Source of the DNA: an uncultured Planctomycetia bacterium
GTDB lineage: Bacteria > Omnitrophota > Gorgyraeia > Tantalellales > Tantalellaceae
Assembly: GCA_964421015.1 (NCBI GenBank)
Contig: CAYQUS010000002.1
Span: forward strand, 8,538-72,537
Length of the DNA stretch: 64,000 nucleotides
Direction of reading: 5' to 3'
Position numbers and translations under genes: made by a program. The notes under the pieces were generated by a model that saw only the letters and a program-made list of their open reading frames with translations, had not been told where the DNA came from and did not search any database. This document shows positions 2,197 to 63,861 of the stretch, piece after piece; the stretch's first letter is position 1, and each line of letters starts with the position of its first letter.

Positions 2197-2286
2197 CTTA
2201 GTTTCCTTTTCGTTAAATTTCTGCCTTTTTTTGCCATTAATGCCTGGCACTTTTCTTTGGTGCCTGGCACTTTTTGCTTTGGACAT

Positions 2287-2315: not shown

Positions 2316-2635
2316 CTTAATAAAAATCATCGAGTCCTTCGGTAACCTGCCGATCCTTTACTCTATTTCAAGGACGCACGGTTTTGCGCACCCGCCAATG
2401 CGGGATTGCCTTTTTCGGAACTTCGCGCAGTATTTTTCTACTTTAAGTATGCCACATAGGGTGGCGCTTTTCAAGTGAACCAAAGTAAAGCTGGCTTTCC
2501 CCAAGCCTATACCCTCCTCTCTTGGCTCTAAAACCCTTAAAAACAAAGAACTTTTAAAAAAATCCATTTTTTTTGAAAAAAATTTAAGGGAATAAAAAAT
2601 TTAAGAAAATTGTGTTCTCACAGATACATAGAAAA

Positions 2636-7056: not shown

Positions 7057-7107
7057 TTATCTACCTCCCTTTTTTCAGGGTTCCTTACAAAATATTTTTA
7101 CCGGTTT

Positions 7108-12730: not shown

Positions 12731-12829
12731 CAAGCCGGCATTAAACCCCTGATTGACTTAGCCATTCACGGTTGTTATAATGTGTGGGGTTTTATCCGGG
12801 ATTTTACAGAAAAACCGGCAATCAGGACC

Positions 12830-12906
12830 GGGAAGTAGCGCAGCCTGGCTAGCGCACCTGCTTTGGGAGCAGGGAGTCGTGGGTTCGAATCCCACCTTCC
12901 CGACCA
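12830..12906 (+). tRNA. tRNA-Pro (anticodon TGG)
   Basis: Cloverleaf folded by hand. Anticodon loop cttTGGga. CCA encoded. Confidence 0.8.
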
Positions 12907-12969
12907 GTTTTTATTTATCCGCCAAGTTACTCGAGTTTTTTGCTTGTTTTTTTGTTTGCTTGCGTTTCA

Positions 12970-13053
12970 GCGGGCGTGGCGGAATTGGCAGACGCGCTAG
13001 CCTTAGGAGCTAGTGGTTTTACCGTGGGGGTTCGAGTCCCTTCGCCCGCACCA
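12970..13053 (+). tRNA. tRNA-Leu (anticodon TAG), long variable arm
   Basis: Acceptor stem gcgggcg/cgcccgc. Anticodon loop ctTAGga. CCA encoded. Confidence 0.8.
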
Positions 13054-13155
13054 TTTTTTGCCCGGGCTCTTTTCCGGGTTGAAATGCGCTGTGTTTTATG
13101 TTTTACTGTTTTTGTTTTTAGGGTTTTTGGGTAAGATCGTGTTCTTTAAAAAGTT

Positions 13156-13232
13156 GCGCCCGTAGCTCACTTGGATAGAGCATCTGCCTTCTAAGCAGAG
13201 GGTAGCAGGTTCGAATCCTGCCGGGCGCGCCA
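13156..13232 (+). tRNA. tRNA-Arg (anticodon TCT)
   Basis: Acceptor stem gcgcccg/cgggcgc. Anticodon loop ctTCTaa. CCA encoded. Confidence 0.8.
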
Positions 13233-13280
13233 TGATCTGAATTTCGCTATCGCGAAATTCACCCGAAGGACCGATTGTTC

Positions 13281-13338
13281 GAGGTCGAGGTGACTGGCAA
13301 CACCATCGCTTTTTAATTGTAAGGTGGTGCCTGTCACC
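13281..13338. repeat. REP-like palindromic unit, inverted copy, between tRNA-Arg and tRNA-His
   Basis: gaggtcgaggtgactggca-loop-ggtggtgcctgtcacc. Confidence 0.55.
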
Positions 13339-13369
13339 AAAGTGTCTGTATCTGTAGATGTACATCGGT

Positions 13370-13446
13370 GGTGGGCGTAGCTCAGCTGGTAGAGCGCCTG
13401 ACTGTGGCTCAGGTTGCCGCGGGTTCAAATCCCGTCGCTCACCCCA
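13370..13446 (+). tRNA. tRNA-His (anticodon GTG) with an encoded G-1
   Basis: Anticodon loop ctGTGgc. An extra 5' G pairs with the discriminator C. CCA encoded. Confidence 0.75.
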
Positions 13447-17900: not shown

Positions 17901-20900
17901 AAAAAATGTCGCTCACTCCCGTTAAAAAAGAAACAAATGTAGTGGCCTTTTTAAACAGGATAATAAGACTGGCCGGACAGAAAACGACCATAACGGACAA
18001 CACTAATTTCCGCACCGCCATAAGAGGACGCTCGGACCAGATCTTCGGGATAAAGCTCGAAAGCGACTCCAAGAAAGACGATATTCCCTTACACGGAAAC
18101 TGGCTTGCGGGAATGAACTTCTCGCGGCTGGAAACCTACGATCCCGAAAGCCCATCGGACTGGGTCATAAAGTTCGGTCAGTTCGCCGATGGAACTTCGG
18201 CAATAGCAAGCTGGCTCAAAGAGTGGAAAATAAACTCTCTCGGCATGAAGGAGCTGTGCGCCCATGACCCTGTCAGTTTCCTCTCTTCTATAGGTCACGA
18301 GGACCAGGCCAAAAAACTGGAAAAGGCCTGGCTCGAGGGAGACCATGGAACAGTGAACAATATCATCAATACGTTTTTCTGCGTAAAGGATAAAGGCCTT
18401 TTTACGGCAGCCCCCATGGTGAAAGGCGGGTTCACCCTCAATAAGATCCTGCATGTTCTCTATCCCGAGATCCACGCCGGGCCGGATGTTAAGACCCCGG
18501 AAGAAGCCGAACGTTTTCAGGCGGAATGCGCCGAGATAAAGCGCCAGCTTGACGCGCTGTTCGCCCGAAAAACACCCGACCAGAGAAAAGAAATACTTTC
18601 GTCCTGGGCTCAGAGAATACATTCCATAGCCGGCAAACTTCACCGGAACGGCATAGTCCACCGGGACCTTAAACCCGATAACATCCTTATAAACATAGAA
18701 AAACAGGACATACGGATAATAGATTTTGAGACCGCGATATTCACCGAAAAAAGAGGAGAAAATATAATCATCCCGGAAGTAAAAAAAGCCGCGACTCCCG
18801 GATACGCGCATTTTTATCAGTTCAATGAGGACATCTACACGGCACTTAGAAGCGTCGGGGAAAAAGCGCTCTGGGCATACCTGAAAGCTCAGGACGTATT
18901 CGCCCTCGAAGTCATATCGGACGAGCTGGTCAACGGAGACACTCCTTTTGACGCGGCGGAATGGGAGACTTTTTCGTCTAAAGGGATGGCCCATCGGATG
19001 ATAAAGAACGGGCATGACCTTATCCTGGCCAGGAACATGGTAGACCTAGCCAGAGCGCATCAGACAGGTAATTATGAAAAACTGCTCGCCCAAAAAAGAA
19101 AAGAATACCAGTCTTTTTCCACCGGACCGCTTCTGGGAGCATACGAGGAAGCCTCCCGCCTTAAATATGACCTTCAGGCCCTTAGAAAAAAAGTGGAACT
19201 CTCCAATTCGCTGAAAAATCAGGCCGAGGAAAAAGAATACTCTTCCTGGGACGCTCTTGAGACTTTGCGGGAGGAGCTTTCCGCCGTAAGCGCGAGGGAA
19301 AAGTTCCTTTCCGAGAAGATAAACCAGCTTGAAATACGCAAAAGGTCTGGCTCCGATCTTTCTTCTTTGCGCGCGGAATTTTCCGAGATCAGGCATAAAA
19401 GAAGTGTTATCGCCTCGAGGGCTCAGGCCGCCGAGGAAAAATACTTCGCGTCTAAAGAAGAGGCCGATGCCGCCCGGAAAAACTCGCAGGCCGCCCGGCT
19501 GGAGTACGATGTTCTTGCCGGGAAATATGCTTCCTCCCAGTCTTTGCTGAGCCAGATGGAGAGGAGAAAGAACAACCTGGAACGCTTTCTTTCTCTGGTA
19601 GAATGGCTGTCGGAAGAAAAACCCGAAATGACCTCTCCTCTCTTGCCCGACGGGAACATCTCTCTTCTCGGCGGGGGGATCTCGTGGGTAGGCGGGGATA
19701 ATTTTACGGGGGGAACGCCGATGGTTAGTTCTCAGGACCTTGACCCTGTGTTCATCGGCGCGGAAAAAACGCTGTCCCTTTTAAGCAAAAGGGATGACGG
19801 GCTCCCTGAACTTCCCGTCGGCATCAGCTCTGAAGGAAAAGTTTTCCAGACTCTGGATTTTATTGACCTTGAGGGAAAACGGATAAACATAAGGCCGCTT
19901 AACGGATCTGTCCTGGCTTCGATTTCGGAAGACGGCAAAACCGCGGCCGTGAACTGGAACCTCATAAACGTCTTGCTCGCCCTTGCCGAGACCCCGGATT
20001 CCCCTGAAAAGATAACGGGAATGAAAAAGATCCTTTCAGACGCTCTTCTCCCCGCCGATATAGGAGAAAAGATCTATTCCGATTTTTCGAAAGTTTCGGG
20101 TCTTTCCTCAGCCGAAAAATACATGATAGCCGGCCGCGTTCTTCTTCATGAGATAACGGAAGCTTACCTCATACAATCCCAGCTGGAAGACGCTCAAGGT
20201 GCGGCTGAAAACCCCGTCGACAGGTCCAGGGCGCATTTCTCGGCCATGGTCGCGGAACTTTACGCGGGAAATACTTTAAAAATAAGGTCTGTCCTGGGGC
20301 CCATCCTGGCTTCGCGCGACCTTAACGAGGCCCGCGGGGTGATCTCATCGCGCGTATCCTCCGGGAAAAAGGATTTTCCGGCCGCGTCCCGGGAAGATTT
20401 TAAAGAAACTGCCGAAAAAATTTCCGGGAAATGTTATCAGGACCTCTTTTTCGGGAAAAACTCTTACATCTTCGTTTTGGGAGCCGAGCCATCCGTCTCT
20501 GAGGGTACTCTTCAGGAGGCTATGTCTCTAGGGCCATCAGTTTCTTCGTCCGCCGGCGCGGCGCGAAGTTTCGCGGCAAAGCAGAATTTCGGAAAGGTCT
20601 CCATATCCCATCATACCGGTAAAGACCAGGCGCTATCCGCCCTTGTTTCCATGGCCTCTCTCCCGGCCGGAAAAAACCGCGTGCATTGCTCTATAAGCCG
20701 GACCCTGCTTTCGGAGATGGACGCTGATCCCTCCGTACTCGCGGCGATTAACGCCTCTTCCGGAGCTAAAACATATTCCTCTGTTTCGGGATTTCTCTCT
20801 TCTTCCGCCATAACCGACATCATAGACGACAGGATTGAGCCGCACGGCGGAGACACGGCCAAAGTACTGCCCATGCCTTACAATGAGGCTTCTCTCCATG

Positions 20901-21199
20901 GCATAGCCCGTCTTAACCTTTCGCATCTGCTTTCCGAATTCCGCGACGAGGACCTTGACGCCGCGAACCCCGATTTCATGAGGGCGGTGAACATGGTGGC
21001 GCTTACAGTCGCCCTCATGTCCGGGAGAAATGACGTGGATTCCATAGCTTTTTCCCTTCTCTCTCTGGCCGGGAATAATCCCAGGGAATTCTTTGTGAGC
21101 GGGAACCTCAGCATTTTCCTCCCGCCCGCGGTTCCGAGGAATCACGAAGAAATACGGGAGGATTATCTTTCAAAGGCAGCTTTGCTCCGATATCTGTAA
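14978..21199 (+). CDS. giant (2073 aa) predicted secreted multidomain protein with an embedded eukaryotic-like Ser/Thr protein kinase domain and coiled-coil regions
   Basis: One uninterrupted 6.2 kb ORF. Signal-peptide-like N-terminus. Kinase catalytic loop HRDLKPDNIL (~18655-18690), then IIDFETAIF (DFG-like, reads DFE), ATPGYAHF (resembles the APE motif) and DVFALEVISDELVNGDTPF (subdomain IX-like). Long heptad and charged coiled-coil stretches lie downstream. Confidence 0.75.
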   Translation: MTVHFLCRSARASFNRLKKAVSLSLAFCLLCPGLSLGKDQYPVPSSDRAVHDTANLSAANTIEIPYGLGFITDRWDGGADPSGYTVIHIQDAHCNYDAQKAVAGIISYLSKRYGAYVVNLEGGEGPYDTSLFSHLGSGDLAQKAADILLEKGLLNGAEYAAVSEGGVFLWGIEDPFLYSKNLSAYRESVSAKEESGRLLSVLNDEVSKAQKSVFSEKLLEIEKFKVGYRSGTLELKDYFTYLWSLAEVSGIDVSLYPLSQKMAGILEKERGIDFEKAGTERTMLVELLGEHLPGEDVLSIAQAAENFRLGKISEASFHGYLYARSAILGERFEDFRELSKYISYSADHGAIDDTFLTEELPSLENSILDLFASTPEEKELLFFARLLETAGRILSFTVTEKDFNFYRTHSSRLQDLGSFVENFIPCGSTSEGAGSAARDLSGYTAKAALFYEYSLLRDEAFLGNMISSPLSRTAVLVTGGFHTKNLARVFREKGIAYVTVMPSFRNAEGYASPYFSVLEGSNGFFPISAAPGAYSLQVPSALAPIKDALTEADLEEYEVNAYVTGEIARGKKLIISMDGGKTLEIGSGTTERLSLDELLHRVHEVYIDRIMARGDFTEVSDEDRDDACGIALEVTQDHSIQRQIIDLHRGENAEGKKLHMQFSSGLGRTKILEHSGGMGVSISSGLYTIEEVRRALVHGIISGFLDDHRMADLITEALLKDDISLASRMFSSAMKGKPAIAVWERSDLVRRSGKRDYADRLSDLQALMSSHSLIRTEKGTWYESQGLRFYRGLWQKNHQIAQGIKVHIDATDDTGKIDIDLLSGAVSLLEKWGFPFKISEPFGQKLVRTHEDSSSYDQEGKTVVIWLVDIEGAPLKDWNKIEDFLSSLESYLSKSPKTKTHFSHDGTTNDQLYGDSGRLGYRFGSYNSGVVIVPSEKGLEQIRPDDHHKHDSELIRHTGLYGSVPEEPFEVQAAKKMSLTPVKKETNVVAFLNRIIRLAGQKTTITDNTNFRTAIRGRSDQIFGIKLESDSKKDDIPLHGNWLAGMNFSRLETYDPESPSDWVIKFGQFADGTSAIASWLKEWKINSLGMKELCAHDPVSFLSSIGHEDQAKKLEKAWLEGDHGTVNNIINTFFCVKDKGLFTAAPMVKGGFTLNKILHVLYPEIHAGPDVKTPEEAERFQAECAEIKRQLDALFARKTPDQRKEILSSWAQRIHSIAGKLHRNGIVHRDLKPDNILINIEKQDIRIIDFETAIFTEKRGENIIIPEVKKAATPGYAHFYQFNEDIYTALRSVGEKALWAYLKAQDVFALEVISDELVNGDTPFDAAEWETFSSKGMAHRMIKNGHDLILARNMVDLARAHQTGNYEKLLAQKRKEYQSFSTGPLLGAYEEASRLKYDLQALRKKVELSNSLKNQAEEKEYSSWDALETLREELSAVSAREKFLSEKINQLEIRKRSGSDLSSLRAEFSEIRHKRSVIASRAQAAEEKYFASKEEADAARKNSQAARLEYDVLAGKYASSQSLLSQMERRKNNLERFLSLVEWLSEEKPEMTSPLLPDGNISLLGGGISWVGGDNFTGGTPMVSSQDLDPVFIGAEKTLSLLSKRDDGLPELPVGISSEGKVFQTLDFIDLEGKRINIRPLNGSVLASISEDGKTAAVNWNLINVLLALAETPDSPEKITGMKKILSDALLPADIGEKIYSDFSKVSGLSSAEKYMIAGRVLLHEITEAYLIQSQLEDAQGAAENPVDRSRAHFSAMVAELYAGNTLKIRSVLGPILASRDLNEARGVISSRVSSGKKDFPAASREDFKETAEKISGKCYQDLFFGKNSYIFVLGAEPSVSEGTLQEAMSLGPSVSSSAGAARSFAAKQNFGKVSISHHTGKDQALSALVSMASLPAGKNRVHCSISRTLLSEMDADPSVLAAINASSGAKTYSSVSGFLSSSAITDIIDDRIEPHGGDTAKVLPMPYNEASLHGIARLNLSHLLSEFRDEDLDAANPDFMRAVNMVALTVALMSGRNDVDSIAFSLLSLAGNNPREFFVSGNLSIFLPPAVPRNHEEIREDYLSKAALLRYL

Positions 21200-25302: not shown

Positions 25303-25497
25303 CTATTTCCTCACTATTTCCCTCAAAACTTCCACCATTTTCACATGCGACCCCTCGTCCCTCATGAGCCACTCCAGAACCGTCCTTACGGCGCCGTCCT
25401 CCACTCTGTCAAGACACCGGGCATATACGTCCCTCATGTCGCGTTCCACTTTTTCTATCTGGTCGATATACTCAAGGTAATCTTCTTTAGTAAGCAT
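25303..25497 (-). CDS. small acidic protein (64 aa), downstream member of duplicated two-gene cassette A
   Basis: MLTKEDYLEYIDQIE... is a paralog of the 63 aa ORF at 30764..30955. Its start overlaps the upstream 83 aa gene by 11 nt in a conserved configuration. Confidence 0.55.
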   Translation of the reverse strand: MLTKEDYLEYIDQIEKVERDMRDVYARCLDRVEDGAVRTVLEWLMRDEGSHVKMVEVLREIVRK

Positions 25498-25738
25498 CCC
25501 TGTCTCCGGTTTTAACGTCCCTTACAAGCCCCATGACCGCGGCCTTATGCCTTTCCGATTCGGAAAGAAGCACTTTGAGTATTTTCTTTACTTTTTCGGC
25601 GTCAGAAGTCCCCATCCCGGTCCAGAATACCGCTGTTTCAAGATGCCTGGCATAGATAGATATGGAACTTTCTTCCGCTATAAGGGCCTTTTCCAGTATT
25701 GTCAGCAGTTCCTTCTTGCTTATCATTTTATTCCTCAT
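25487..25738 (-). CDS. small helical protein (83 aa), upstream member of cassette A
   Basis: Paralog of the 79 aa ORF at 30945..31184 (shared pattern L..LEKA....R.L..HL...AV...G...EK..K.L......H.AA...). Confidence 0.55.
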   Translation of the reverse strand: MRNKMISKKELLTILEKALIAEESSISIYARHLETAVFWTGMGTSDAEKVKKILKVLLSESERHKAAVMGLVRDVKTGDRDAY

Positions 25739-26678
25739 CCTTGAAATAACCGCTTTTCAGGCTTTTCCCGAAACTTGCGGCGCCTTCCGTGCCCGGCTTA
25801 AAACTCCAGTCAACTTCCTTGTCTACGTTAAAAAGGATAAAACCTTTTACTTTTTTCCAGGACCTGATATTTTTCATGGCCTCGCGTATCCAAACGGCTT
25901 TATTTCCTCCCTGTCCCGAAGAGCCGAACTCGCTTATTATGACCGGCTTGCCGAATTCTTTCACGGCTCTCGTGTAGGCGGGGAGAAATATCTCCCTGAA
26001 ACTACGCCATCTGCTCCATTCGCGCGTATTCCCCCAATTATAACCGTCTATACCTACATAATCAACGTACCCGTCTCCGGGATAGTATTCCGCGAAATCA
26101 TTCCACGGTTCATCCGGGACATTTTCCCAGTTAAAGGAAAAGACCCATTTCACATTGGCGGCTCCCTCAGCGCTGAAAACATCCTTAACATGCCTGTACA
26201 TCTTCTTGTAGTTTTCGCTTCCTATAATGCTTCCGGACCAGGGATACCAGTCCCCGTTCATTTCATGAGCGAAACGTATAAGTATTTCGCGGTCGAACCC
26301 TGAGATCCGGGAAGCGAAGTTTCGTATATACTCATCGTACTCGCCTGCCAGAAGTTTCTCCGGGTCCACTCCCTCGGAATGGTTTTTCCATGGCTCCCAC
26401 GTTATAACAGGACGGCAGCCGTTCGCCAGTATGTCCCTTATCGTGTTATCTGGAGGGAACCTTTCCCAATCGGTAAAAACAAGAACATAGTATGGCTTTT
26501 TCCCGTAGGCTTTCTCGAAGGCTTTGATGTCCGCGTTCCCGGGATGATCCGTCAGAAAAGCCCCCGTGAAACATCCTCTGTGCTCTGACCAGATACTTGA
26601 CCTGGTAACGATGTACACCGAGACCCCGGCTATGATCAGAGTGAAAAATATCGCTAGTGCCTTATGCCCCGGGTTCAT
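25728..26678 (-). CDS. glycoside hydrolase, GH26-like (mannanase-type fold), membrane-anchored
   Basis: Motif RFAHEMNGDWYPWSG plus WEPW and FGSSGQ-type catalytic-region motifs. N-terminal TM anchor. Confidence 0.6.
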   Translation of the reverse strand: MNPGHKALAIFFTLIIAGVSVYIVTRSSIWSEHRGCFTGAFLTDHPGNADIKAFEKAYGKKPYYVLVFTDWERFPPDNTIRDILANGCRPVITWEPWKNHSEGVDPEKLLAGEYDEYIRNFASRISGFDREILIRFAHEMNGDWYPWSGSIIGSENYKKMYRHVKDVFSAEGAANVKWVFSFNWENVPDEPWNDFAEYYPGDGYVDYVGIDGYNWGNTREWSRWRSFREIFLPAYTRAVKEFGKPVIISEFGSSGQGGNKAVWIREAMKNIRSWKKVKGFILFNVDKEVDWSFKPGTEGAASFGKSLKSGYFKDEE

Positions 26679-27045
26679 TGTTCTCCGGGATGAATTCTCT
26701 TATTTTCGCCAATAATTCCGCATATTGGAAAGGCTTAAGGATAAAACCATCGTGGGAACATCCCTCAAAATCCTTTTTCCTTATGCCGGCGCTTGCCGTA
26801 AGAAGGATTATGGGGATATTTCTGAAATTTTGGTCGCCTTTAAGCTCTCCGCATACCTCAAACCCGTCCTTCCCGGGGAGCCTCAGGTCCAGCAGTATAA
26901 TATCGGGCCTTTGTTTCTTGGCCATTTCAACGCCTTCCTCGCCGTCGTCCGCCGTAAAAACCTCGTAACCGGCTTTTTCGAGTATGAACTTTACGGATTT
27001 AAGTATATCCGGCTCGTCGTCCACGATAAGTATTCTTTTAGGCAC
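26662..27045 (-). CDS. response regulator, receiver domain only (CheY-like)
   Basis: ILIVDDEPDILKS...DIILLDLRLPGKDGFEV...PIILLTA. Confidence 0.85.
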   Translation of the reverse strand: MPKRILIVDDEPDILKSVKFILEKAGYEVFTADDGEEGVEMAKKQRPDIILLDLRLPGKDGFEVCGELKGDQNFRNIPIILLTASAGIRKKDFEGCSHDGFILKPFQYAELLAKIREFIPENNEPGA

Positions 27046-30000
27046 GACCCGACCCCCTTCTTTCTTGAATGGGAATCACAAAGGAAAAACGCGACCATTT
27101 GCCGTATTCCGATTCCGCCCAGATCCTCCCGCCGTGGTAGGAAACCAGTTTTTTGCATATGGCAAGCCCCAGCCCTGTTCCGCCGGTTTTCCTGTCCTTG
27201 CCCTTGTCGAGCTGAACATATTCGTCAAAAAGCCTTGAAAGGTCCTCCTCTCTTATTCCGGCGCCAGTGTCTTCCACGGAAACCATGACCACATTTTCTT
27301 CTGTTTTAGCCTTGGTGAATATCGTAACCCCGCCTTTTTCGGTGAACTTAAAGGCGTTACTGAGAAGATTAACAAGCACCCTTGTTATAGCGTCGCTATC
27401 GAAAACAACTTGCGGAACATCTTCCCCGAGAGAAAGCGAAAACTCCAGACCTCTTTTTTCGGCTTCCGCGAGCATATCCCTGTACGTGCTCTCTACAAGT
27501 TTGTTTATATCGCCTTTTTCCATCACGAATTTTTCCTTGCCGGATTTAAGCCTCTGAAAATCCAGGACGTCGTTTATAAGCCTTCCAAGCCTGTCCACAT
27601 TTCGCGTGACGGTCTCGAGGAAATCTTTCTGCTCTTTGTTGATATCCCCGGCTATACCGTCAAGCACTATGGAAACTCCCGCTTTTATTGTAGTAAGGGG
27701 GGTCCTCAGCTCGTGGGAAACAGTAGATGTGAATTCTGTCTGCATATCCATGGCTTTCTCAAGCTCCGCCTCGGCTCTTTTCTGAAGGCTCAGGTCCACT
27801 ATTACTCCGTCCAGCCATACCGCTTTTCCTTCGTCGTCAAAAATACACTTGCCTTTATCTTTTACCCATACCATTTTCCCGTCACAACAGCGCAGCCTGT
27901 ACTCCACGTCATAAGCGCGCCTTGCGGCTACGGCTTCTCCTATCTCCTTATTGACACTTTCTCTGTCCTCTTCCTCTATAATGGAAGAAAAGGACCTTAC
28001 CCGGTTCATTATGAAATCCGTCACCGGGTACCCCGTAAGTCTCTGTATCTCATCGCTTATGAAATACATGGTCCAATCGGCGTCTTTTGCGCATCTATAG
28101 ACTATGCCGGGCATGTTCTCTACCAGGGTCCTGTACTTCTCCTCGCTTTCCCCTATTGCCCTCTGTGCCTTTTTAAGCTCGGAGATATCCGCGAAAGTCT
28201 CGAGAATGACCCTTTCTCCGCTTATCTCTATTTCTCTCACGTTCTTTATTATAGGAAGCTCTTCTCCGTCTGTTCTAAGAAGAGCGCTTTCAAAATTGAC
28301 CATTTCTCCGCCGGACCCCTCTGACGGGCAGGAACATGAACCATCAGCCTTGAAAAACCTTCCGCAATCGCTGCCCTCGGCGTCAAGCCTGGAAGAACCG
28401 CTCATTTTAAGGGCCATCTCGTTCATCCAAAGGATGGTCTTTTTGCTGTTCAGGATGGCTACGCCGAAAGGCGCTCTTTCAAGTATCTCTCTCACCTCAT
28501 CGTGAGCCTTCTGAAGTTCTGCCTCGAACCTTTTCCTTTCGGTGATATCTTCCTTGACCGCTACGAAATGTGTTACCTTGCCGTCAATGCCGCGTATGGC
28601 CGATATAGAAGCGCTTTCCCAGTAAAACTCTCCGTTCTTTTTTTTGTTGTAAAACTCGCCCCGCCACTCGCCTCCTGCCGAAATCGTGTCCCATAGGTTT
28701 TTATATACAAGGGCCGACTGCGCTCCGGACTTCAGTATTCTCGGGTTTTTGCCGAGACACTCTTCCCTTGTGTAGCCGGTGATCTCGGAGAATTTAGGAT
28801 TAACGTATTCTATTCTCCCGGAGGTATCGGTTATTACCACGCATGCGGGACTTTGTTCCACCGCCGCCGATAAATAACGCAGACGCCGCTCCCTTTGGTT
28901 CCTTTCGGTTACATCCCAAAAAACAAGTATAGCTCCGATCATTTTCTGATTCCTTATATTCCTTATCGGAGACGCGCTGCATTCTATCGCGAGTGTTTTT
29001 CCTTTCATCCCGGCAAAGACCATGTCCCCGGACAATTTCACGGTATTACCGGAGGCGATCGCCGCAAGAACGGGATTATCCAGCTTTTTCCCGGTAACTC
29101 TTTCCTTTATGGCAAAAATGTCATCTATTCGGCCTTCCGTTGACTCGGCGGACTCCCACCCTATCATTTCGCGGGCCACCCGGTTTATGGTCGCTATCCT
29201 TCCTTTTACATCCGTAAGAACTACTCCTTCCGCTATGCTCTCAAGGGCGGCGGAAAACCATTCCCGGCTTGTAGTGGTGCCCTGGAGTTCCATGGTCATT
29301 TTGTCGAAAGCCCTAGAAAGCTCGCCGACCTCATCGTTTGTCGTTATGTTTATCCTGTGCTTCAGGTCTCCCGCTCCTATTACCTCGGCTCCCTTCCTGA
29401 GAGCGGCCAGTGACGATGTTATTCTCCTTGAAACGATATTGCCGACCACAAAAAAAAGCATCACAGACAAAACAAATATCGCCCCGAGCCATAGTATGGT
29501 TTTTCTGGCTTCCTCATACGCCTCTTCCTCGTCCACCTTGGCGACAAGGGCCAGATTGGCCGTTCTGGCGTATCCCGTAGCCGCTATTACCTTTCTTCCC
29601 CTGTAATCCTCTACCCCGAACATCACTCTTATTTTCCCGGAGAGAGCCTCACGGGTAGAAACGGGAATGCTCCCTTCCTGTCCTCTCCATATGGCTTCTT
29701 CTTCAAAACGTCTCTTTATGGGCAAATTTATCTTCCCGGAACTGTCGCGGAAGACCACCAGTACTTCCCCCGTTTTCCCTCTACCGGCTATGCCGGTGAT
29801 AATATCGGTGAGAACTCCTGTTTTGAGCACCATGACGCCTACTCCCGTAACTCCGCCCGACGTCAAAAGGGGCCCGGACACAAAGATCTTATACTCCCCG
29901 TTCTCTTGGAAAAAGTGGATAGTCTCTTCTCTGGAGAAAAATCCTTCCCTTGAAATATCCTTCCCGATAAAATCTTCATCGGTAGAGACCATTACCCTTC

Positions 30001-30358
30001 CTGAAACATCCGCCAGCATTATCCTCTCTATATCCGCCGCCGCGTCTTCCGCTGTTTCCATCATTTTCTGTATACCTTCGAGATATTCCGCTTTACCGCT
30101 TTCAATGTATCCATCCCAAAACTCCCTAAGCCTTATCCTCCCGAGTATGAGCCTCAGCCCCATCATGCTTTTACCAAGGTAAGTTTCTATGTGATCGGCG
30201 GTGGAATCCGCCATGACCTCAAGCCGGCTCACCTCACGTTCCAGGACAGCCGCGTAAAAAAAACTTCCTATCACGGCGAAAACGAGCAGAAGAACGGAAA
30301 CGAATACCGCCAAGAAAGTTAAGCTTATCTTCGTCCCTATCCTTAGCCCCTTTTTCAT
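27038..30358 (-). CDS. sensor histidine kinase with periplasmic sensor domain, HAMP, multiple PAS/PAC domains, HisKA and HATPase_c
   Basis: TM-sensor-TM-HAMP region. Several PAS blocks (SPACVVITDTSGRIEYVNPKFSEITGY..., PGIVYRCAKDADWTMYFISDEIQRLTGY...). H-box VSHELRTPL. N/G boxes (LLSNAFKFT, GGTGLGLAICK). Confidence 0.9.
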   Translation of the reverse strand: MKKGLRIGTKISLTFLAVFVSVLLLVFAVIGSFFYAAVLEREVSRLEVMADSTADHIETYLGKSMMGLRLILGRIRLREFWDGYIESGKAEYLEGIQKMMETAEDAAADIERIMLADVSGRVMVSTDEDFIGKDISREGFFSREETIHFFQENGEYKIFVSGPLLTSGGVTGVGVMVLKTGVLTDIITGIAGRGKTGEVLVVFRDSSGKINLPIKRRFEEEAIWRGQEGSIPVSTREALSGKIRVMFGVEDYRGRKVIAATGYARTANLALVAKVDEEEAYEEARKTILWLGAIFVLSVMLFFVVGNIVSRRITSSLAALRKGAEVIGAGDLKHRINITTNDEVGELSRAFDKMTMELQGTTTSREWFSAALESIAEGVVLTDVKGRIATINRVAREMIGWESAESTEGRIDDIFAIKERVTGKKLDNPVLAAIASGNTVKLSGDMVFAGMKGKTLAIECSASPIRNIRNQKMIGAILVFWDVTERNQRERRLRYLSAAVEQSPACVVITDTSGRIEYVNPKFSEITGYTREECLGKNPRILKSGAQSALVYKNLWDTISAGGEWRGEFYNKKKNGEFYWESASISAIRGIDGKVTHFVAVKEDITERKRFEAELQKAHDEVREILERAPFGVAILNSKKTILWMNEMALKMSGSSRLDAEGSDCGRFFKADGSCSCPSEGSGGEMVNFESALLRTDGEELPIIKNVREIEISGERVILETFADISELKKAQRAIGESEEKYRTLVENMPGIVYRCAKDADWTMYFISDEIQRLTGYPVTDFIMNRVRSFSSIIEEEDRESVNKEIGEAVAARRAYDVEYRLRCCDGKMVWVKDKGKCIFDDEGKAVWLDGVIVDLSLQKRAEAELEKAMDMQTEFTSTVSHELRTPLTTIKAGVSIVLDGIAGDINKEQKDFLETVTRNVDRLGRLINDVLDFQRLKSGKEKFVMEKGDINKLVESTYRDMLAEAEKRGLEFSLSLGEDVPQVVFDSDAITRVLVNLLSNAFKFTEKGGVTIFTKAKTEENVVMVSVEDTGAGIREEDLSRLFDEYVQLDKGKDRKTGGTGLGLAICKKLVSYHGGRIWAESEYGKWSRFSFVIPIQERRGSGRA

Positions 30359-30359
30359 C

Positions 30360-30740
30360 CTAGCCCCTCTTTTGGGTAACGGTTTCTATCTTGTTTATAA
30401 GAAGCCCCAGGTCGAATGGTTTTATGAAATACGCGTCGGCGCCGGTTTCGAAAGCTTTTTCCCTGTCTTTCTGGCGGTCCAGCGCCGAAAGGACTATTAT
30501 GGGGATATCTTTGTATCTCTCGTCGAATTTAAGCATCCGGCAGACCTCGAACCCGCTGATCTTCGGCATCATGAGGTCCAGTATGATAACGTCGGGCGGG
30601 GATTTTTTCACTATATCCATCGTCTCTTCTCCGTCTCTCGCCTGCATGACGCTGTACCCCGCTACCTCAAGGCGCATAGAGAGTATTTTCCTGATATCGT
30701 CATTGTCCTCGCTTAAAAGAACTTTTATATTCCCGCTCAT
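30360..30740 (-). CDS. response regulator, receiver domain only
   Basis: KVLLSEDNDDIRK...DVIILDLMMPKISGFEV...PIIVLSA...ADAYFIKPF. Confidence 0.85.
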   Translation of the reverse strand: MSGNIKVLLSEDNDDIRKILSMRLEVAGYSVMQARDGEETMDIVKKSPPDVIILDLMMPKISGFEVCRMLKFDERYKDIPIIVLSALDRQKDREKAFETGADAYFIKPFDLGLLINKIETVTQKRG

Positions 30741-30763
30741 TCGTTACCGTCCTTCGTTTGACG

Positions 30764-30955
30764 TCAGACGAACTTTTCTTTTTGAGATCTTATGTACCTG
30801 TACGAATCCATGCTTTCGGACGCCAGGGGTTCTATTTTGCTTTTTATGGAGCTGTCAGAAAGTTCATTGAGTAGGTCCGTGTACACCACTACCGCTTCCC
30901 TTATGAGATCTTCTATTTCGTTCATGTACTCCGCGTAATCCTCTTTAGTAAACAT
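30764..30955 (-). CDS. small acidic protein (63 aa), cassette B paralog of 25303..25497
   Basis: MFTKEDYAEYMNEIE... The 11-nt overlap with the upstream gene is the same as in cassette A. Confidence 0.55.
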   Translation of the reverse strand: MFTKEDYAEYMNEIEDLIREAVVVYTDLLNELSDSSIKSKIEPLASESMDSYRYIRSQKEKFV

Positions 30956-31184
30956 TAGTTTCCCCGTTTTTTATCTCTTCCATTATGGACTCCAGCGCCG
31001 CGAAATGTTTGGTATGCGTCACCGCCATCTCCTGGAACTTCTCCAGCATCTTCTCCTTTTGCTCTCCCCCGAGAGAGCCGTGCGTCACGGCGGAGGCTAT
31101 ATGCCTGTTGAGGTGGAGAACCAGCCTCTTCTGTATTTCCATGGCCTTTTCCACGCCTTCTATGAGCTTCTTTTTCCCTATCAC
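30945..31184 (-). CDS. small helical protein (79 aa), cassette B paralog of 25487..25738
   Basis: See cassette A. Confidence 0.55.
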   Translation of the reverse strand: MIGKKKLIEGVEKAMEIQKRLVLHLNRHIASAVTHGSLGGEQKEKMLEKFQEMAVTHTKHFAALESIMEEIKNGETNVY

Positions 31185-33013
31185 CTTAACATCTCCTTTT
31201 CCAGGGTTTCCCTGTCTGACTGAGTTATGGTTATAACTCCTATCCTCGCGGGGTATCCGCTCTTTTCTTTTTTTGCGCAGATCTCCACCACGCTCCCGTC
31301 GAATATTATGGTTTTCCCGTTTTTTTGCTCAAGCCTGCACATTATCACGGTCCCCGGCTCGGCCTTCTCTTTTAATCTCCCCTCAAAACAGACCTGCCAT
31401 GTCTGGGGAGAGAGCTTAACGAGTTCCGGCCTGGAATCTACCGTCCTGTAAGCGAATATTACATTCTTTCTCAGCTTTTTGCAAACACCTTCCTCGATAC
31501 CCTTACGGTTAAAATAGAATACGGAAGAAAGAACAAAACAGTGATATGCCGCCCAGAAACAGTTCACTATTATCGCGGGTTCCCTTTCATACAGAAACCT
31601 GTTGAAACCCCAGACCATTGAGATATAACTTATCGCCAGCATCCCAAGCTGCGGCCATAGCCTTACGTAGGGTATCACCGCCCCTTTTGTTTTTTCGGTT
31701 ATCCCGAAGGTCGTTTTTATCCCGAAAAGCGAGCTGACGGCGGCTCTCACGTATACAGTGAACGTTATGCTCCCGAGAAGCTGGCCGGTAAAGAGGTCCT
31801 TCACTGTATAGTGCCTGTCCCCGAGAACGGTGTAGAATACCGTCATGGTAAGCATTATGTACGGCAGGAACGTGAGAAGGTATATGTCAGGATTAATGAA
31901 GAACGACGGCACTCTAAAAAGAAGGTAAAGCGCGGGGAATATCATAAGGATAAAAAAGGCGAAACCTACCAGATAGTACGACCCCGACAGAAAATATTCC
32001 CACCACTGGCGGAGTTTCAGCGAAAAAGGATCCGAGACCATCCCGAGAAGCACTCTTTTCAATACCGCTATCGTCCCGTTAGCCCACCTGTACTGCTGTT
32101 TAAGGTAACCTGTAAGGTTTTCCGGGGCCATACCGAAGGCGTAAGTGTGGTTGTAATACAGAGATCTCCATTTTCTTTTGTGGAGCTTGAGCGACGTGGC
32201 GAAATCCTCGGTCACCGTGGATTCATCCAGCCCTCCCACATCCATAAGAGCCTCTCTCCTGAAAATTATGTTGGTGCCGCAGCAGAACATGGCTTCCTGG
32301 GAACTTTTGCCCTCGCAGATATACTCATAAAAAACAGCCTGCTGGAAAGCCGCCGCCTTGGCCACCCGGCTTTCCTCGGTGTTAGTATAGAACTGGGGTG
32401 TCTGAACAAAGGCCAGCCTGTCATCCTCCTCCATTATGGAAACCACCCTGTTGAGGAACTCCGGAAGGGGGCACTGGTCCGCGTCGAAGACCGCGACATA
32501 TTTGTGGTCTATTGTCCCGAGAAAATCGTTTATTATGCCGGCCTTGGCTCCGTGCCTTTTTTCTCTCCTGAAAAGCCTTACGCCCAGCGCCGACGTTATT
32601 TCATCCGCTTCTTTCTTGTATTTTTCGTCGGAACTGTCGTCGAGAAAGAACACTTCCTTGTTGGTGTAATTAAGATTCACAAGGCTTATTAAGGTGTCTT
32701 CCAGAACCTCTTTGGGTTCATGTCTCGCGGCCACTATCACGGCTACCGTGGGTTCATGCTCGACTTTAACATGCGCCGTCTTATCCGCTCTCTCCTGTAG
32801 TTTCTTGGTATTGTACGCTCTGGCCACGTTCATCACATATCCTATCCCGTGGAGAATTATGAAAAATTCCCCGAAAAGCAGGAACATCGAGGCTATCTTA
32901 TCGGCGCCGGAATAGTTGGCATACCCGAAAAAAACGGACCTGACTACGACATAGACAATGATCGCCATCACCGACATAAGGACCAGAGAATCAATGAGAG
33001 TTCTTTTTTTCAC
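31181..33013 (-). CDS. GT2-family processive polysaccharide synthase (cellulose-synthase-like), multi-TM, possible C-terminal PilZ-like region
   Basis: Motifs DDSSDE, VFDADQ, TEDFATS and QQYRWANG (QxxRW), with flanking TM helices. The C-terminal ~120 aa is soluble. Confidence 0.75.
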   Translation of the reverse strand: MKKRTLIDSLVLMSVMAIIVYVVVRSVFFGYANYSGADKIASMFLLFGEFFIILHGIGYVMNVARAYNTKKLQERADKTAHVKVEHEPTVAVIVAARHEPKEVLEDTLISLVNLNYTNKEVFFLDDSSDEKYKKEADEITSALGVRLFRREKRHGAKAGIINDFLGTIDHKYVAVFDADQCPLPEFLNRVVSIMEEDDRLAFVQTPQFYTNTEESRVAKAAAFQQAVFYEYICEGKSSQEAMFCCGTNIIFRREALMDVGGLDESTVTEDFATSLKLHKRKWRSLYYNHTYAFGMAPENLTGYLKQQYRWANGTIAVLKRVLLGMVSDPFSLKLRQWWEYFLSGSYYLVGFAFFILMIFPALYLLFRVPSFFINPDIYLLTFLPYIMLTMTVFYTVLGDRHYTVKDLFTGQLLGSITFTVYVRAAVSSLFGIKTTFGITEKTKGAVIPYVRLWPQLGMLAISYISMVWGFNRFLYEREPAIIVNCFWAAYHCFVLSSVFYFNRKGIEEGVCKKLRKNVIFAYRTVDSRPELVKLSPQTWQVCFEGRLKEKAEPGTVIMCRLEQKNGKTIIFDGSVVEICAKKEKSGYPARIGVITITQSDRETLEKEMLR

Positions 33014-33049: not shown

Positions 33050-35074
33050 TTAAAAGTAATACTTTATTCCTGCCACGAACTCGCTTTCCTCATAAACCCC
33101 CGCGCTTGAACCCATGAACCCGCCTCGCACGTTCAGATTGAACCTTTTTGTGATATCCCACCCCGCTTCCCATGAGAACTTGTTGCCGGCTATGTACTGG
33201 GAATCCACGATGAGCTCATATTTGACGTCGTAGTATATGTCGTTGGCCCCGAAAAATCTCTCTTCCTTATTAAGATAGTGCCTCCAGTTGACAAGGAAGG
33301 TGTTGGACGAGAACCCTTTCGGGGAAAAATACTCCCCCACCTTGTTCTTGAACTCCCTGTAGGAGTATCTGTACCCCGCGGTCAGAAGTCTCGGCTCAAA
33401 GGATAACCTGTAAAGAACATCGACCGAAGGCTCATTGAGGACATTCCCGTCGGAATAGGCCGCCGCCGTGTAATCCGCTCCGGCTCTCAAACGGTTTGTG
33501 ATATCGAAATAAACGCTGTTCCGGAACCTGTTACGGGTAAAGTTCCTTCGTATGACCTCGCTGTTATTCTCAAGCTTCTCCCTGTCATAGGTAAAAAGAA
33601 ATTCTCCCAAGTCGAATATCCTGCGGGAAAAACTTGCGCCGAATAAATGCGTAAATTCATCGATGCCTCCGGCATATCCCATAACTCCGTAATATCCCGA
33701 AGCTCTCCAGTCCGGGCCATTGAGCCAGGTAAACTTGAATCTTCCCTCGTTCTCGGTAGTATCCCGGAAATCCCGATACTGCCTTCCCCTGAGAGCGTAT
33801 TCAACATCCATGAAAAACCTGCCGGACAGGGGGAACCTCACTCCGCTGAGAAGCTCATGTATCCTCATATCCATGTCCCTTCCCGCAGAATCTCCTTCGA
33901 AATACCTGTACCTCGCCGATGAAAGCGGATGTTTTGAGATGAGAAGGGCCTTTTCTTTTCCTTCCTTCGCCCTGAAGTGCGCAGGGTTTTTCTCCAAAAT
34001 CCCTTCGTATTCGCTCAGCGCGTCGTCCCACATTGATTGGTACGCGTAGATCTGGCTGAGGTCGAACATGGCTTCCGTGTTTTCCGGCTCAAGTTTTATA
34101 AGCTCTGAATAGAGTTTTATGGCTTTTTTGACCCTTCCCGACCAGTACGCCTTTTTAGCCCCGCCTTCGAGCCTGGCCGCAGAGCTTTCGCTTTTTGCTG
34201 CCAGGGACTCGTACTCTTTTTCAGCCTCAGAATATCTTCTGTCCCATCCCATAACTCTCGCCTTCTGCCTGTGGACCTTTTCGTCGTATTTTGCGGACAG
34301 GATCTCGTCGTATAGATTAAGGGCTTTTTCGTACTGTTTGTCCCAACTGAGAACATCGGCCAGTTTTATCTTAACTTCGTCGTTTGGTTTATCCTTAAGG
34401 ATCTCGCCGTAAAGCTTCTCGGCTTCCGCGAACCTCCGGCTGTAGGCATATGTATCGGCCAAAAGGGCCTTAGCCTCAATGTTATCTTTGTCCCCTGCCA
34501 GGATACTTTTAAGGACCTCTTCGGCTAGGGCTGGCTTACCTGAATACAAGAACGCTTTTGCCTTAAGCATCCCCGCCCTCGGCTCTTTCGCCGAGCCCGA
34601 CTCTTCTATAAAGCGCAGGGCTTCGTCATATTCCCCCTTCCAGATAAGTATCTCGGCGAACCTCAAAAGAACATCTTCGTTTTTATCTCCCGAAGAAACA
34701 AGCTTCTTGTATTCTTCTTTCGCGCTGTCTATATCGCCTCTCCAGACATATACCTCCGCCAGATCTTTCATCGCTTCCCTGTTTGAAGGGTCGATCTTAA
34801 GTATTTCCCGGTATTCCGTTACGGCCTCGCCGTACCTTTTCTCCCAGCTCAAAAGTTTAGCCAGCGACATCCTCGCCTTGATATCGTCCGGCTTGTCTTT
34901 TACTATCAGGGAATAAGCTGCGATTGCCTTTTCGTTCTGTCCGCTGGCAAGATACGTTTCCGCGAGAAGAGCGGAAATCTTGTCTTTGTCGGCCGAAAGA
35001 GCATTCTTCCCGGAGAGAAAGAATAGGGATGCGCACAAAAGAGAAAAAACAACCCTGGCGAGATTATTTTTCAT
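33050..35074 (-). CDS. TPR-repeat protein with a C-terminal outer-membrane beta-barrel (BcsC/PgaA-like polysaccharide export porin)
   Basis: Signal peptide. More than 8 TPR units in the N-terminal 400 aa. The C-terminal 270 aa has alternating aromatic beta-strands and ends in a terminal F (…GIKYYF). Confidence 0.65.
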   Translation of the reverse strand: MKNNLARVVFSLLCASLFFLSGKNALSADKDKISALLAETYLASGQNEKAIAAYSLIVKDKPDDIKARMSLAKLLSWEKRYGEAVTEYREILKIDPSNREAMKDLAEVYVWRGDIDSAKEEYKKLVSSGDKNEDVLLRFAEILIWKGEYDEALRFIEESGSAKEPRAGMLKAKAFLYSGKPALAEEVLKSILAGDKDNIEAKALLADTYAYSRRFAEAEKLYGEILKDKPNDEVKIKLADVLSWDKQYEKALNLYDEILSAKYDEKVHRQKARVMGWDRRYSEAEKEYESLAAKSESSAARLEGGAKKAYWSGRVKKAIKLYSELIKLEPENTEAMFDLSQIYAYQSMWDDALSEYEGILEKNPAHFRAKEGKEKALLISKHPLSSARYRYFEGDSAGRDMDMRIHELLSGVRFPLSGRFFMDVEYALRGRQYRDFRDTTENEGRFKFTWLNGPDWRASGYYGVMGYAGGIDEFTHLFGASFSRRIFDLGEFLFTYDREKLENNSEVIRRNFTRNRFRNSVYFDITNRLRAGADYTAAAYSDGNVLNEPSVDVLYRLSFEPRLLTAGYRYSYREFKNKVGEYFSPKGFSSNTFLVNWRHYLNKEERFFGANDIYYDVKYELIVDSQYIAGNKFSWEAGWDITKRFNLNVRGGFMGSSAGVYEESEFVAGIKYYF

Positions 35075-35684
35075 TGCTCTCCTTCAGCATTCTTTCAAGA
35101 ACACTCGACGCTTCAAGGCTGTTCCCCGAGTAGTAGAGCGCTTTGCCCATCATAAAAAGAGCATCCATGTCCCGGGGGTCCCTTTCAAGTATAGGCCCCA
35201 GCATATTCTCCGCCTTGTCGTATTTACCGCTCCAGAGATAAAGTTCGGCAAGCTTCTTTTTAACCGTTATATTTCCGGTTTCCAGCAGTTTTTCCCTTAA
35301 TATCGCTACCGCCTCGTCATATTGCCTGTTCCATGAATAGGCATCCGCGAGAGCGCATGGTATTTTTTTATCATCGGGAAAATCCGCTTCGGCCTTTAAA
35401 AGAAAAGGTATGGCTTCTCCGGGTCTTCCTGTCCAGAGATAGGAGTATCCCAGTTCAAGCTCGGCTTCTTTGTTCCCGGGGGAAAGTTCCAGGCTTTTTT
35501 CAAGGAACGGGGCCGCCTGCAGGTATTTCCCTGAAAGAAAAAGCCGGTGTCCCTGATAAAAATTAATGCTGGGTTTTTGTGTGGAGTGGTATAGCAGGGA
35601 AATAACGAACGCCGCCGCGGCAAGGGCTAATACAGCTATGACCCTTCTCATTTCAATGGCTCCTGGTTGTTTTTTTACCCGCAA
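35064..35684 (-). CDS. TPR-repeat protein, membrane-anchored
   Basis: TM anchor followed by TPR units (LELGYSYLWTGRPGEAIPFLLKA...). Confidence 0.6.
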   Translation of the reverse strand: MRVKKQPGAIEMRRVIAVLALAAAAFVISLLYHSTQKPSINFYQGHRLFLSGKYLQAAPFLEKSLELSPGNKEAELELGYSYLWTGRPGEAIPFLLKAEADFPDDKKIPCALADAYSWNRQYDEAVAILREKLLETGNITVKKKLAELYLWSGKYDKAENMLGPILERDPRDMDALFMMGKALYYSGNSLEASSVLERMLKESNEK

Positions 35685-38026: not shown

Positions 38027-38045
38027 AAGGTTCTCCCTTTTCGTT

Positions 38046-55211: not shown

Positions 55212-55241
55212 AAAAACAGGGGCCGGAACGAGTCCGGCCCC
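55212..55241 (-). terminator. Rho-independent terminator downstream of pheT
   Basis: On the minus strand: ggggccgga-ctcgt-tccggcccc followed by tgttttt. Confidence 0.55.
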
Positions 55242-63771: not shown

Positions 63772-63861
63772 ACTATATCTATTTTTACCTCATTGTTACA
63801 TTATATACAAAACATTTCATTCAGTATACCGCAATCTGCCCTGCGCCGCTCTGCGCCTGAA

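Follow-up and report, generated by a model that had tools for sequence, protein, structure and literature searches.

Four-helix diiron proteins are thought to derive from the duplication of a helix hairpin, and symerythrin retains the internal two-fold sequence symmetry expected from such a duplication. To our knowledge, the only natural two-helix members of the ferritin fold described so far are the homo-oligomeric encapsulated ferritins (EncFtn). Here, we describe two pairs of small overlapping genes, cassettes A and B, in a 64-kb window of contig CAYQUS010000002.1 from a Candidatus Omnitrophota metagenome-assembled genome (MAG); "the window" refers to this whole stretch. Each cassette encodes a longer protein (large) and a shorter one (small), all four annotated by NCBI as "hypothetical", and it is firmly supported that they are real proteins of an unnamed, widespread family built from a half-ferritin hairpin. 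Their place in a polysaccharide-export operon of Omnitrophota is fixed, they probably serve there as small regulatory subunits, and we consider it rather likely, judging from sequence and gene order, that both pairs would be heteromeric four-helix-bundle accessory subunits, with A regulating the synthase and B binding a response regulator.

Among known systems, EncFtn (EncB/EncC; PF22277, NF058679) is the best PDB match of large A and is also matched by small A. It shares with these proteins a two-helix half-ferritin architecture, a similar length, and an interfacial Glu/Tyr/Glu-x-x-His site with equal spacings. In the EncFtn ferroxidase centre, two chains each supply Glu32, Tyr39, Glu62, and His65, metal stabilises the dimer, and assembly is metal-dependent (PMC5012862). 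EncFtn is, however, a homo-oligomeric annular decamer with a symmetric site, an encapsulin-targeting tail, and an adjacent encapsulin shell gene, whereas the window pairs have two different chains, an asymmetric site with a Glu-to-Ser change, a 9-residue loop insertion in the large protein, a polysaccharide operon as their context, and no encapsulin gene. No encapsulin shell was seen among the neighbours in the window and ~25 loci, which instead encode GT2, GH26/GH8, TPR-porin, REC, and histidine kinase proteins, and the large C-termini are a dual-coded D/N-A/V-Y/F rather than a targeting peptide. The two-gene architecture argues for a heteromer, unlike the homo-oligomeric EncFtn.

Two other groups invite comparison. 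The rubrerythrin/erythrin/symerythrin group (PF02915) is the best Pfam family for the type A halves, with small A aligning to helices C-D including the ExxH. Each member of this group is a single polypeptide with a crossover loop, to which rubrerythrin adds a rubredoxin domain; the type A halves come from separate genes, carry no rubredoxin domain, and have lost the bridging Glu in one of the two. A single-chain four-helix bundle with a B-C crossover was found at none of the 32 loci; two separate two-helix open reading frames (ORFs) are present in 32/32. The designed Due Ferri proteins DF1/DF2 (PDB 1MFT, 1U7M, 1EC5, 1Y47) are the top PDB match of small A, and they too are hairpins of ~50 residues that dimerise into a dimetal bundle; DF1 is an artificial homodimer derived from the natural diiron consensus, whereas the window proteins are natural and, as proposed here, heteromeric. 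Type A might offer protein designers a natural counterpart of the Due Ferri scaffold. The fold superfamily is already known, as is the half-ferritin principle from EncFtn. The hetero-pair, the asymmetric Glu-to-Ser site, the ligand-less type B, the association with a synthase and a response regulator, and the PilZ fusions described below all appear to be undescribed, and our literature searches returned nothing on either PilZ-associated ferritin-like proteins or the polysaccharide operons of Omnitrophota. A widespread hetero-pair consisting of a canonical and a degenerate half, with a ligand-less daughter pair, would show how an ancestral hairpin can be subfunctionalised.

The size of the family became apparent from a HMMER scan with a profile of the two concatenated pairs against 1.84 billion cluster representatives (E<=1e-3), which returned 301 representatives that are either ~79 amino acids (aa) long and match the first half or 62-67 aa long and match the second. 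Word-index protein searches gave few matches for such short proteins (2, 12, and 33), and a scan of metagenomes with a narrow alignment of large A found the same organism only. Sequence separates the representatives into four subfamilies, two large and two small: large A (..AEE.aIPIY.KHL..a.FWtG....L..(D/E)S..HK.....(D/N)(A/V)(Y/F)), large B (..LIPLLN(K/R)HIS..L.FS.L....(Q/H).KH.E.L..IK....NVY), small A (ML(T/S)KEDY..YL.QI..vE..M...Y..C...VED.........L..DE..H..mV..L), and small B (MFTK.DY..YF.E.E......L.IYTDLLNEL.D..I.SKL......E.M..F.FI...KEKF). A third small subtype, MFTK.DY..YF.AIQ.ADK.M...HIR.DE..H., occurs mostly in GH8-type operons (L025, L026, L028, L029, and L030); it keeps Asp/Glu18, Met21, and the ExxH, has lost Tyr25, and scores 35-49 bits against the small A model. 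No Pfam, NCBIfam, or PADLOC model covers large A, large B, or small B.

The ferritin-like origin of type A emerges from profile comparison. The small A profile matches the Due Ferri helix-loop-helix dimers (E 2e-9), a designed single-chain diiron protein (4e-8), bacterioferritin (1e-6), and symerythrin (2e-6), as well as the TM1526 "ferritin-like diiron-carboxylate protein" (within 1e-5 to 1e-6), EncFtn, EncB, and EncC. Taken singly, 34/35 small A members match Pfam Rubrerythrin, 25 match DUF2383, and 12 match EncFtn-like, while 22/62 large A members match Rubrerythrin (Rubrerythrin counts at E<=0.1, best matches near 1e-6). The large A profile matches EncC (E 4e-4), with the ligand columns aligned, and the Pyrococcus EncFtn, and homology also links small A to large A (hhalign 94%, E 1.6e-7), the latter carrying the 9-residue insertion in its inter-helix loop. 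The profiles make it probable that the type A halves are members of the ferritin-like superfamily, at the level of Rubrerythrin/EncFtn. The type B profiles on their own match no known family in PDB or Pfam. The two large proteins of the window share 27% identity across 79 aa without gaps (E 2e-9) and the two small ones 39% across 44 aa (E 2e-10), with profile-profile E values of 7e-23 and 9e-13; as judged from these alignments, the paralogy proposed in the initial annotation far exceeds chance. That annotation had left the family unassigned, which stands for type B and no longer for type A; the profile match to a well-known family that it had named as grounds for doubt exists at the level of the half-fold, while the window proteins themselves fall under the Pfam cut-off and type B has no match. 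The history that these sequences suggest runs from one half-ferritin hairpin to a hetero-pair and then to a duplicated hetero-pair, of which type B has since drifted beyond recognisable ferritin sequence.

The metal ligands follow the same division. In small A, E18, Y25, E48, and H51 have the EncFtn ligand spacing (7, 30, 33), so that 4/4 EncFtn-type ligands are present at identical positions relative to one another; in large A, 3/4 are present once the 9-residue loop insertion is allowed for. Conservation in small A is complete for E18, E48, and H51 (40/40 each) and nearly so for M21 (39/40) and Y25 (36/40), and in large A it is high for H60 (75/75), H28 (72/75), E18 (71/75), and Y25 (64/75). 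The position of the bridging Glu in large A is Ser57 in 68/75 members (~91%), preceded by Asp/Glu56 in 65/75. Of the two E...ExxH motifs that make up a six-ligand site, only that of small A is complete (E18...E48xxH51), large A having E18...[D/E56]S57xxH60 and type B lacking both motifs. A helical-face calculation places the type A ligand columns within ~45 degrees of the hydrophobic helix face, and for this reason we read them as buried polar residues; conserved buried ligands of this kind would give the type A bundle an asymmetric site of three carboxylates, two His, two Tyr, and a Ser. As far as sequence can tell, there is firm support for a modified metal site retained at the interface of type A, and for its loss from type B. 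The conserved Met21 of small A aligns with DF1 position 13, which is changed in the DF1 variants L13A and L13G; in DF1, the residue at this position controls access to the metals.

Gene order firmly supports the assignment of type A to a synthase-dependent polysaccharide operon. In 17/19 cases, the pair lies directly 3' of a hydrolase or synthase gene (GH26 in 10, GH8 in 6, GT2 in 1), the two exceptions being a pair at a contig edge and the pair of locus L018, which has a non-polysaccharide context. The commonest A operon reads TPR, TPR/PgaA-like porin, ~505-aa GT2, GH26 or GH8, large A, and finally small A, contains no two-component genes, and is found in Omnitrophota MAGs as well as MAGs labelled Elusimicrobiales and Planctomycetes. 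The GT2 of A-only operons is 456-513 aa long. In every operon with a B pair (also L004-L013), the GT2 has an extra C-terminal domain of ~105 residues (607-617 aa in total) with the pattern CKK...F.YK...W..CF...L.E....GT..M.K......iFD..V......GF...lGV.T, which is absent from the A-only operons. In BcsA-type synthases, gating normally falls to a PilZ domain and cyclic di-GMP (c-di-GMP). The C-terminus of the window GT2 has no Pfam PilZ match (hhalign against PilZ, 12% probability), and the window pair has neither a PilZ match nor a c-di-GMP motif, but small A is fused to PilZ (PF07238, E 3e-6 to 4e-12) in P0048, P0094, L017, and L018, with RxxxR and DxSxxG visible in the PilZ of P0048. The PilZ-less GT2 of the A-only operons and the PilZ on some small A proteins lead us to read type A as a putative cytoplasmic regulatory subunit of the synthase. 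This operon type has no PilZ on its synthase and always includes the pair, which in some genomes itself bears the PilZ, so that the pair is a definite candidate for the regulatory input that the synthase would otherwise lack. BcsA PilZ, Alg44 PilZ, PgaD, and BcsR/BcsQ/BcsE are familiar examples of small synthase-operon products, cytoplasmic or membrane-associated, that gate a processive GT2, and the presence of PilZ on some small A proteins while the partner GT2 has none extends the likeness; these accessories nevertheless have no sequence relationship to the window pairs, whose fold is ferritin-derived.

If the ferritin-like site of type A were its whole purpose, then the pair could be a two-chain antioxidant or iron enzyme, a rubrerythrin-like peroxidase or an EncFtn-like ferroxidase, that protects this anaerobe, is co-transcribed for convenience, and makes no regulatory contact with the synthase. 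Besides the ligands and the homology, this explanation could draw on the anaerobic host and its adjoining [FeFe]-hydrogenase, on the AhpF-like, FMN-reductase, and nitroreductase genes close to the pairs of L019 and L018, on the label "rubrerythrin" that some members carry in IMG, and on a 54-aa rubredoxin gene immediately 3' of the A pair of L029 on the opposite strand (6599..6763, -; a single instance), rubredoxin being the redox partner domain of rubrerythrin. We nonetheless judge it plausible but unlikely. The type A proteins lack a rubredoxin domain, an encapsulin, and a targeting peptide, the bridging Glu is replaced in ~91% of large A, and the near-obligate terminal position in a GT2/GH operon recurs across the Omnitrophota and the Elusimicrobiales- and Planctomycetes-labelled MAGs; PilZ fusions and a ligand-less type B tied to a response regulator would also be hard to explain.

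Type B is a component of the REC1/kinase module, again with firm support from its position. An ortholog of REC1, a single-domain response regulator, lies directly 3' of the type B pair in 13/13 cases, while the 5' neighbour is a GT2 in 9, a histidine kinase in 3, and an 88-aa ORF of unknown function in 1. On the complete Omnitrophota chromosome CP070797, 46 kb separates the cassettes, with GT2-GH26-A standing alone (L021) and B-REC1-histidine kinase lying in a receiver/kinase cluster (L015); together with the synteny rules, this split implies that A travels with the synthase and B with the response regulator. The sequences of type B differ at the positions where type A keeps its ligands. In small B, residue 18 is Ile or Leu and there is no His; in large B, residue 18 is Gln, Glu, or Lys (Q18 in the window), the second motif reads (Q/H)57-x-x-H60 (H57-x-x-H60 in the window), and H28 and H60 are retained. 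Small B instead conserves the polar residues T26, D27 (39/44), and N30 (41/44). D27 and N30 lie ~150 degrees from the hydrophobic face in the helical-face calculation and are therefore predicted to be exposed. An exposed acid-x-x-amide on a hairpin helix, encoded beside a receiver, recalls the response-regulator phosphatases (CheZ DxxxQ, CheX/CheC ExxN, Spo0E, HisKA E/DxxN/T), and the logic of this motif is known for CheX, HisKA, and CheZ; those proteins differ in having no profile similarity to small B.

A scaffold role is another explanation. In this case, the pairs would be purely structural parts of the secretion machine, like the small Bcs/Pga accessories, and their polar residues would stabilise the bundle and sense neither metal, redox state, nor phosphorylation; the fixed operon position and coupled stoichiometry would suit it, type B works without metal ligands, and some operons dispense with the A pair (L004 and L007). 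We hold it to be plausible but unlikely, since buried Glu, His, and Tyr residues in type A are 90-100% conserved at EncFtn spacing, the PilZ fusions point to a signal input, and B remains strictly beside a receiver domain even apart from synthase genes (L015, L006, L008, and L016).

The retained histidines raise a further explanation, in which the large subunits are HPt or Spo0B-like phosphotransfer bundles that act between the kinase and the two receivers through His60 (or His28). Spo0B is itself a dimer built from helical hairpins, a kinase and two receivers without output domains are encoded in the window operon, and H60 is kept not only in large A (75/75) but also in large B (29/30), despite the loss of the other ligands there, as is H28. 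This explanation is quite improbable: there is no Hpt or HisKA profile match and no HxxKG-type motif, His60 is on the buried face, and most type A pairs are found in operons that lack two-component genes altogether.

It is firmly supported that large and small are obligate, co-translated partners. Our survey covered 32 non-redundant pairs, taken from the window, from loci in the genome collection, and from contigs reached via homologs. The large gene is directly 5' of the small gene on the same strand in all 32, and the two overlap by 11 nucleotides (nt) in 29/32, with a 1-nt TAATG overlap in 2 and a 3-nt gap in 1. In both window cassettes, the overlap is ATGYTTACTAA, preceded by g. Each small ORF begins with an ATG of its own (GTG in L015), and in the junctions inspected a purine-rich Shine-Dalgarno-like element lies 5-9 nt 5' of this start; in cassette A, it is GGAG, 6 nt 5' of the A-small ATG. 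The large frame reads xAT GYT TAC TAA, giving [D/N][A/V]Y*, and the small frame reads ATG YTT ACT AAx, giving M[L/F]TK. The couplings that this predicts between terminal residues (Ala/Leu, Val/Phe, Tyr/Thr, and Phe/Ser) agree with those observed among the representatives, and because double coding fully explains the nucleotide conservation of the overlap, no RNA-level motif is needed. The two TAATG pairs imply that coupling is retained when the overlap is altered, and the variant junctions, together with the lack of a slippery site, argue for termination-reinitiation rather than frameshifting. Single-ORF fusions are rare (P0008 and P0005, 2/301 representatives) and lend weak "Rosetta stone" support to a physical association of large and small. 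The unvarying order and strand, the shared 11-nt overlap, and the coupling kept in the TAATG pairs likewise favour a heteromer, if indirectly.

These junctions also bear on whether each pair is in truth one four-helix ferritin-like gene, either read through by programmed +1 frameshifting at the overlap or broken by a frameshift mutation (a pseudogene or an assembly error). The ORFs are indeed adjacent halves of a known single-chain fold, and the two fused representatives would fit, but the split recurs across 300 clusters and, in independent assemblies, at 32 loci, the small ORF has its own start and Shine-Dalgarno-like sequence in the junctions inspected, and the tRNA-Tyr on UAC cannot re-pair on ACU, there being no slippery site. 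The three loci with a TAATG or a 3-nt gap keep two ORFs where the same frameshift would be impossible, and we consider a single gene very improbable. The initial annotation had described the overlap as conserved at the nucleotide level and as suggesting translational coupling with fixed stoichiometry; the first holds for both cassettes and the 29 pairs, and an embedded start codon kept across phylum-level divergence fits both parts of the second. Its worry that the ORFs might be spurious is allayed by the recurrence of pair and overlap in other genomes (29/32 with the 11-nt overlap). Its further suggestion of toxin-antitoxin or anti-sigma/partner-switch modules, natural enough for small overlapping co-translated gene pairs beside signalling genes, is scarcely credible given that no toxin, antitoxin, defence, STAS, or anti-sigma family was matched in Pfam, NCBIfam, or PADLOC, that no STAS, HATPase-type anti-sigma kinase, PP2C, or NepR/PhyR-type pair occurs in the four proteins or their immediate neighbours, that homology connects the two members with one another and with ferritin halves, and that the context is one fixed and conserved operon type, neither mobile nor variable.

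In the mechanism that we infer for the pairs as regulatory subunits, termination-reinitiation coupling would supply large and small in a fixed ratio, and the 79-aa and ~64-aa hairpins would pack into one heteromeric four-helix bundle, all four proteins descending from the "half-ferritin" hairpin that is the building block of rubrerythrin, bacterioferritin, and EncFtn. At the type A interface, Glu18, Tyr25, Glu48, and His51 of the small protein would face Glu18, Tyr25, and His60 of the large, with Ser57 in place of the bridging Glu and an acid at 56. If assembly or conformation of type A depends on bound metal, by analogy with the metal-dependent dimerisation of EncFtn, then Fe(II), and hence O2 or peroxide, could be the signal, and in an anaerobe that bears an [FeFe]-hydrogenase this might tie matrix production to oxygen or iron exposure. 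Type B is an Omnitrophota-centred duplicate that has lost the buried metal ligands and gained the exposed Asp27-x-x-Asn30 patch on small B, through which it may bind REC1 as an adaptor or auxiliary phosphatase. By way of the extra C-terminal domain of the GT2, it could then couple the kinase and its two-component system to the synthase.

A bolder form of this reading takes all of these steps together: type A as a natural heterodimeric "Due Ferri" whose interfacial iron site senses Fe(II), O2, or peroxide and activates a PilZ-less cellulose-synthase-like enzyme in strict anaerobes, type B as a descendant of the ferritin fold turned into a new class of response-regulator phosphatase or adaptor that uses its exposed DxxN, and the two jointly as a hitherto unknown control of synthase-dependent exopolysaccharide secretion independent of c-di-GMP as well as a living two-helix stage of ferritin-fold evolution. 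We regard this combination as possible but doubtful. If operons of this kind and their sensors are at work in Omnitrophota, an uncultured phylum of ultra-small anaerobes, they would bear on the attachment or protection of the cells, and the main survey of the phylum makes no mention of a matrix or polysaccharide system.

Several observations weigh against the pairs being heteromeric ferritin-like regulators of synthase and response regulator. The window A-small protein scores 19.8 bits against Rubrerythrin (PF02915), under the 22.8-bit gathering cut-off, and A-large gives no Pfam match. AlphaFold2 (AF2) models of the directly concatenated pairs show four long helices, with pLDDT 76 and pTM 0.59 for A and pLDDT 73 and pTM 0.44 for B; the confidence for the concatenated pairs is no more than moderate, the forced fusion imposes the topology, the models decide neither it nor the interface, and Foldseek returned no significant structural match. 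Large A lacks the canonical ExxH Glu, and the site may consequently bind one metal, a different ligand, or nothing. Gene order also has its irregularities. The A pair of L018 is outside any polysaccharide operon, the operons of L004 and L007 have B, GT2, and GH26 yet no A pair, and L027 has a large A (7001..7449) without a small partner, the next ORF encoding an unrelated DUF1844 protein. For type B, the small DxxN protein has no profile match to CheZ, CheX, Spo0E, or HisKA, and its likeness to response-regulator phosphatases is confined to motif and context. The L027 large A gene comes after two giant TPR/transglutaminase proteins.

The features of the window are collected in Table 1. The four ORFs are where the initial annotation had put them, on the minus strand, and its order of genes, with the cassettes bracketing REC, PAS histidine kinase, REC, and GH26, is as it described; a role of the pairs as accessories of a signalling and exopolysaccharide block is supported as well. 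Its sizes for cassette A need one change. The 64-aa small member stands, but the 83-aa large member most likely starts at its fifth codon and has 79 aa, because Met5 aligns with the B-large start (MISKKEL / MIGKKKL). A GAGGA is found 5' of Met5, independent gene callers also picked this start in near-identical contigs, and 79 aa is the length of ~75 large homologs and is shared by nearly all homologs.

Table 1. Features of the 64-kb window discussed in the text (coordinates are window positions).
Feature	Position	Strand	Description
A-small	25303..25497	-	64-aa helix-loop-helix; predicted canonical diiron half-site E18, M21, Y25, E48-x-x-H51
Cassette A dual-coding overlap (ATGCTTACTAA), 11 nt	25487..25497	-	A-large stop and A-small start
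A-large	25487..25726	-	79 aa from Met5 (most likely start); helix-loop-helix, EncFtn-like half-ferritin; conserved E18, E19, Y25, H28, D/E56, S57, H60
A-large, ORF as listed	25487..25738	-	alternative upstream ATG at 25738, giving 83 aa
GH26 glycoside hydrolase	25728..26678	-	membrane anchor or signal at the N-terminus; next gene 5' of cassette A
REC2	26662..27045	-	second single-domain response regulator
Histidine kinase	27038..30358	-	Cache-like, HAMP, four PAS, HisKA, HATPase
REC1	30360..30740	-	single-domain response regulator; ortholog 3' of every type B pair
B-small	30764..30955	-	63 aa; A-small paralog without the E/ExxH ligands; conserved YTDLLNE motif
Cassette B dual-coding overlap (ATGTTTACTAA), 11 nt	30945..30955	-	B-large stop and B-small start
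B-large	30945..31184	-	79 aa, GTG start; 4-nt overlap with GT2 stop; A-large paralog
GT2 C-terminal domain	31181..31500	-	residues ~505-610 of GT2
BcsA-like processive GT2 synthase	31181..33013	-	610 aa; ~105-aa conserved C-terminal domain, no PilZ match
TPR and beta-barrel export porin	33050..35074	-	PgaA/BcsC-like
TPR protein	35064..35684	-	
[FeFe]-hydrogenase	36083..39710	-	with NuoF-like flavoprotein
436-aa ORF	976..2286	-	N-terminal IS200-like Y1 transposase domain
c-di-GMP-I riboswitch	2338..2420	-	directly 5' of the 436-aa ORF
tRNA cluster	12829..13446		
2073-aa ORF	14978..21199	+	protein-kinase-like segment
6S RNA	55239..55396	-	directly 3' of pheT
tRNA cluster	63695..63948		

Read along the minus strand, the operon runs TPR, TPR-porin, GT2, B-large, B-small, REC1, histidine kinase, REC2, GH26, A-large, and A-small, with genes that are tightly packed through overlaps or very short gaps, and a gene for a 110-aa secreted protein follows 3' of A-small after a gap of 86 nt. 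A promoter and terminator scan of the operon gave counts at the level of shuffled sequence, and no operon boundaries were derived from it. Proteins identical to those of A and B are present in a public MAG (HPN72823/4 and HPN72996/7), where their tags (PKZ41_02380/85 versus PKZ41_03270/75) place the cassettes ~177 genes apart, versus 5 kb in the window; a differing contig order or assembly could account for this.

Beyond the operon, the [FeFe]-hydrogenase genes also lie by the polysaccharide operon at L004 (1218..4851) and L017 (13792..15564), and this proximity in distant relatives may reflect conserved linkage or co-regulation. The c-di-GMP-I riboswitch scores 43.5 bits, above its gathering score, and lies in front of an unusual target for this class, a 436-aa ORF whose N-terminus matches PF01797 (E 1.6e-9). 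In the 2073-aa ORF, the sole recognisable part is the protein-kinase-like segment at residues 1191-1331, very long ORFs being a known Omnitrophota trait. The window also contains the 6S RNA (54 bits) and the two tRNA clusters.

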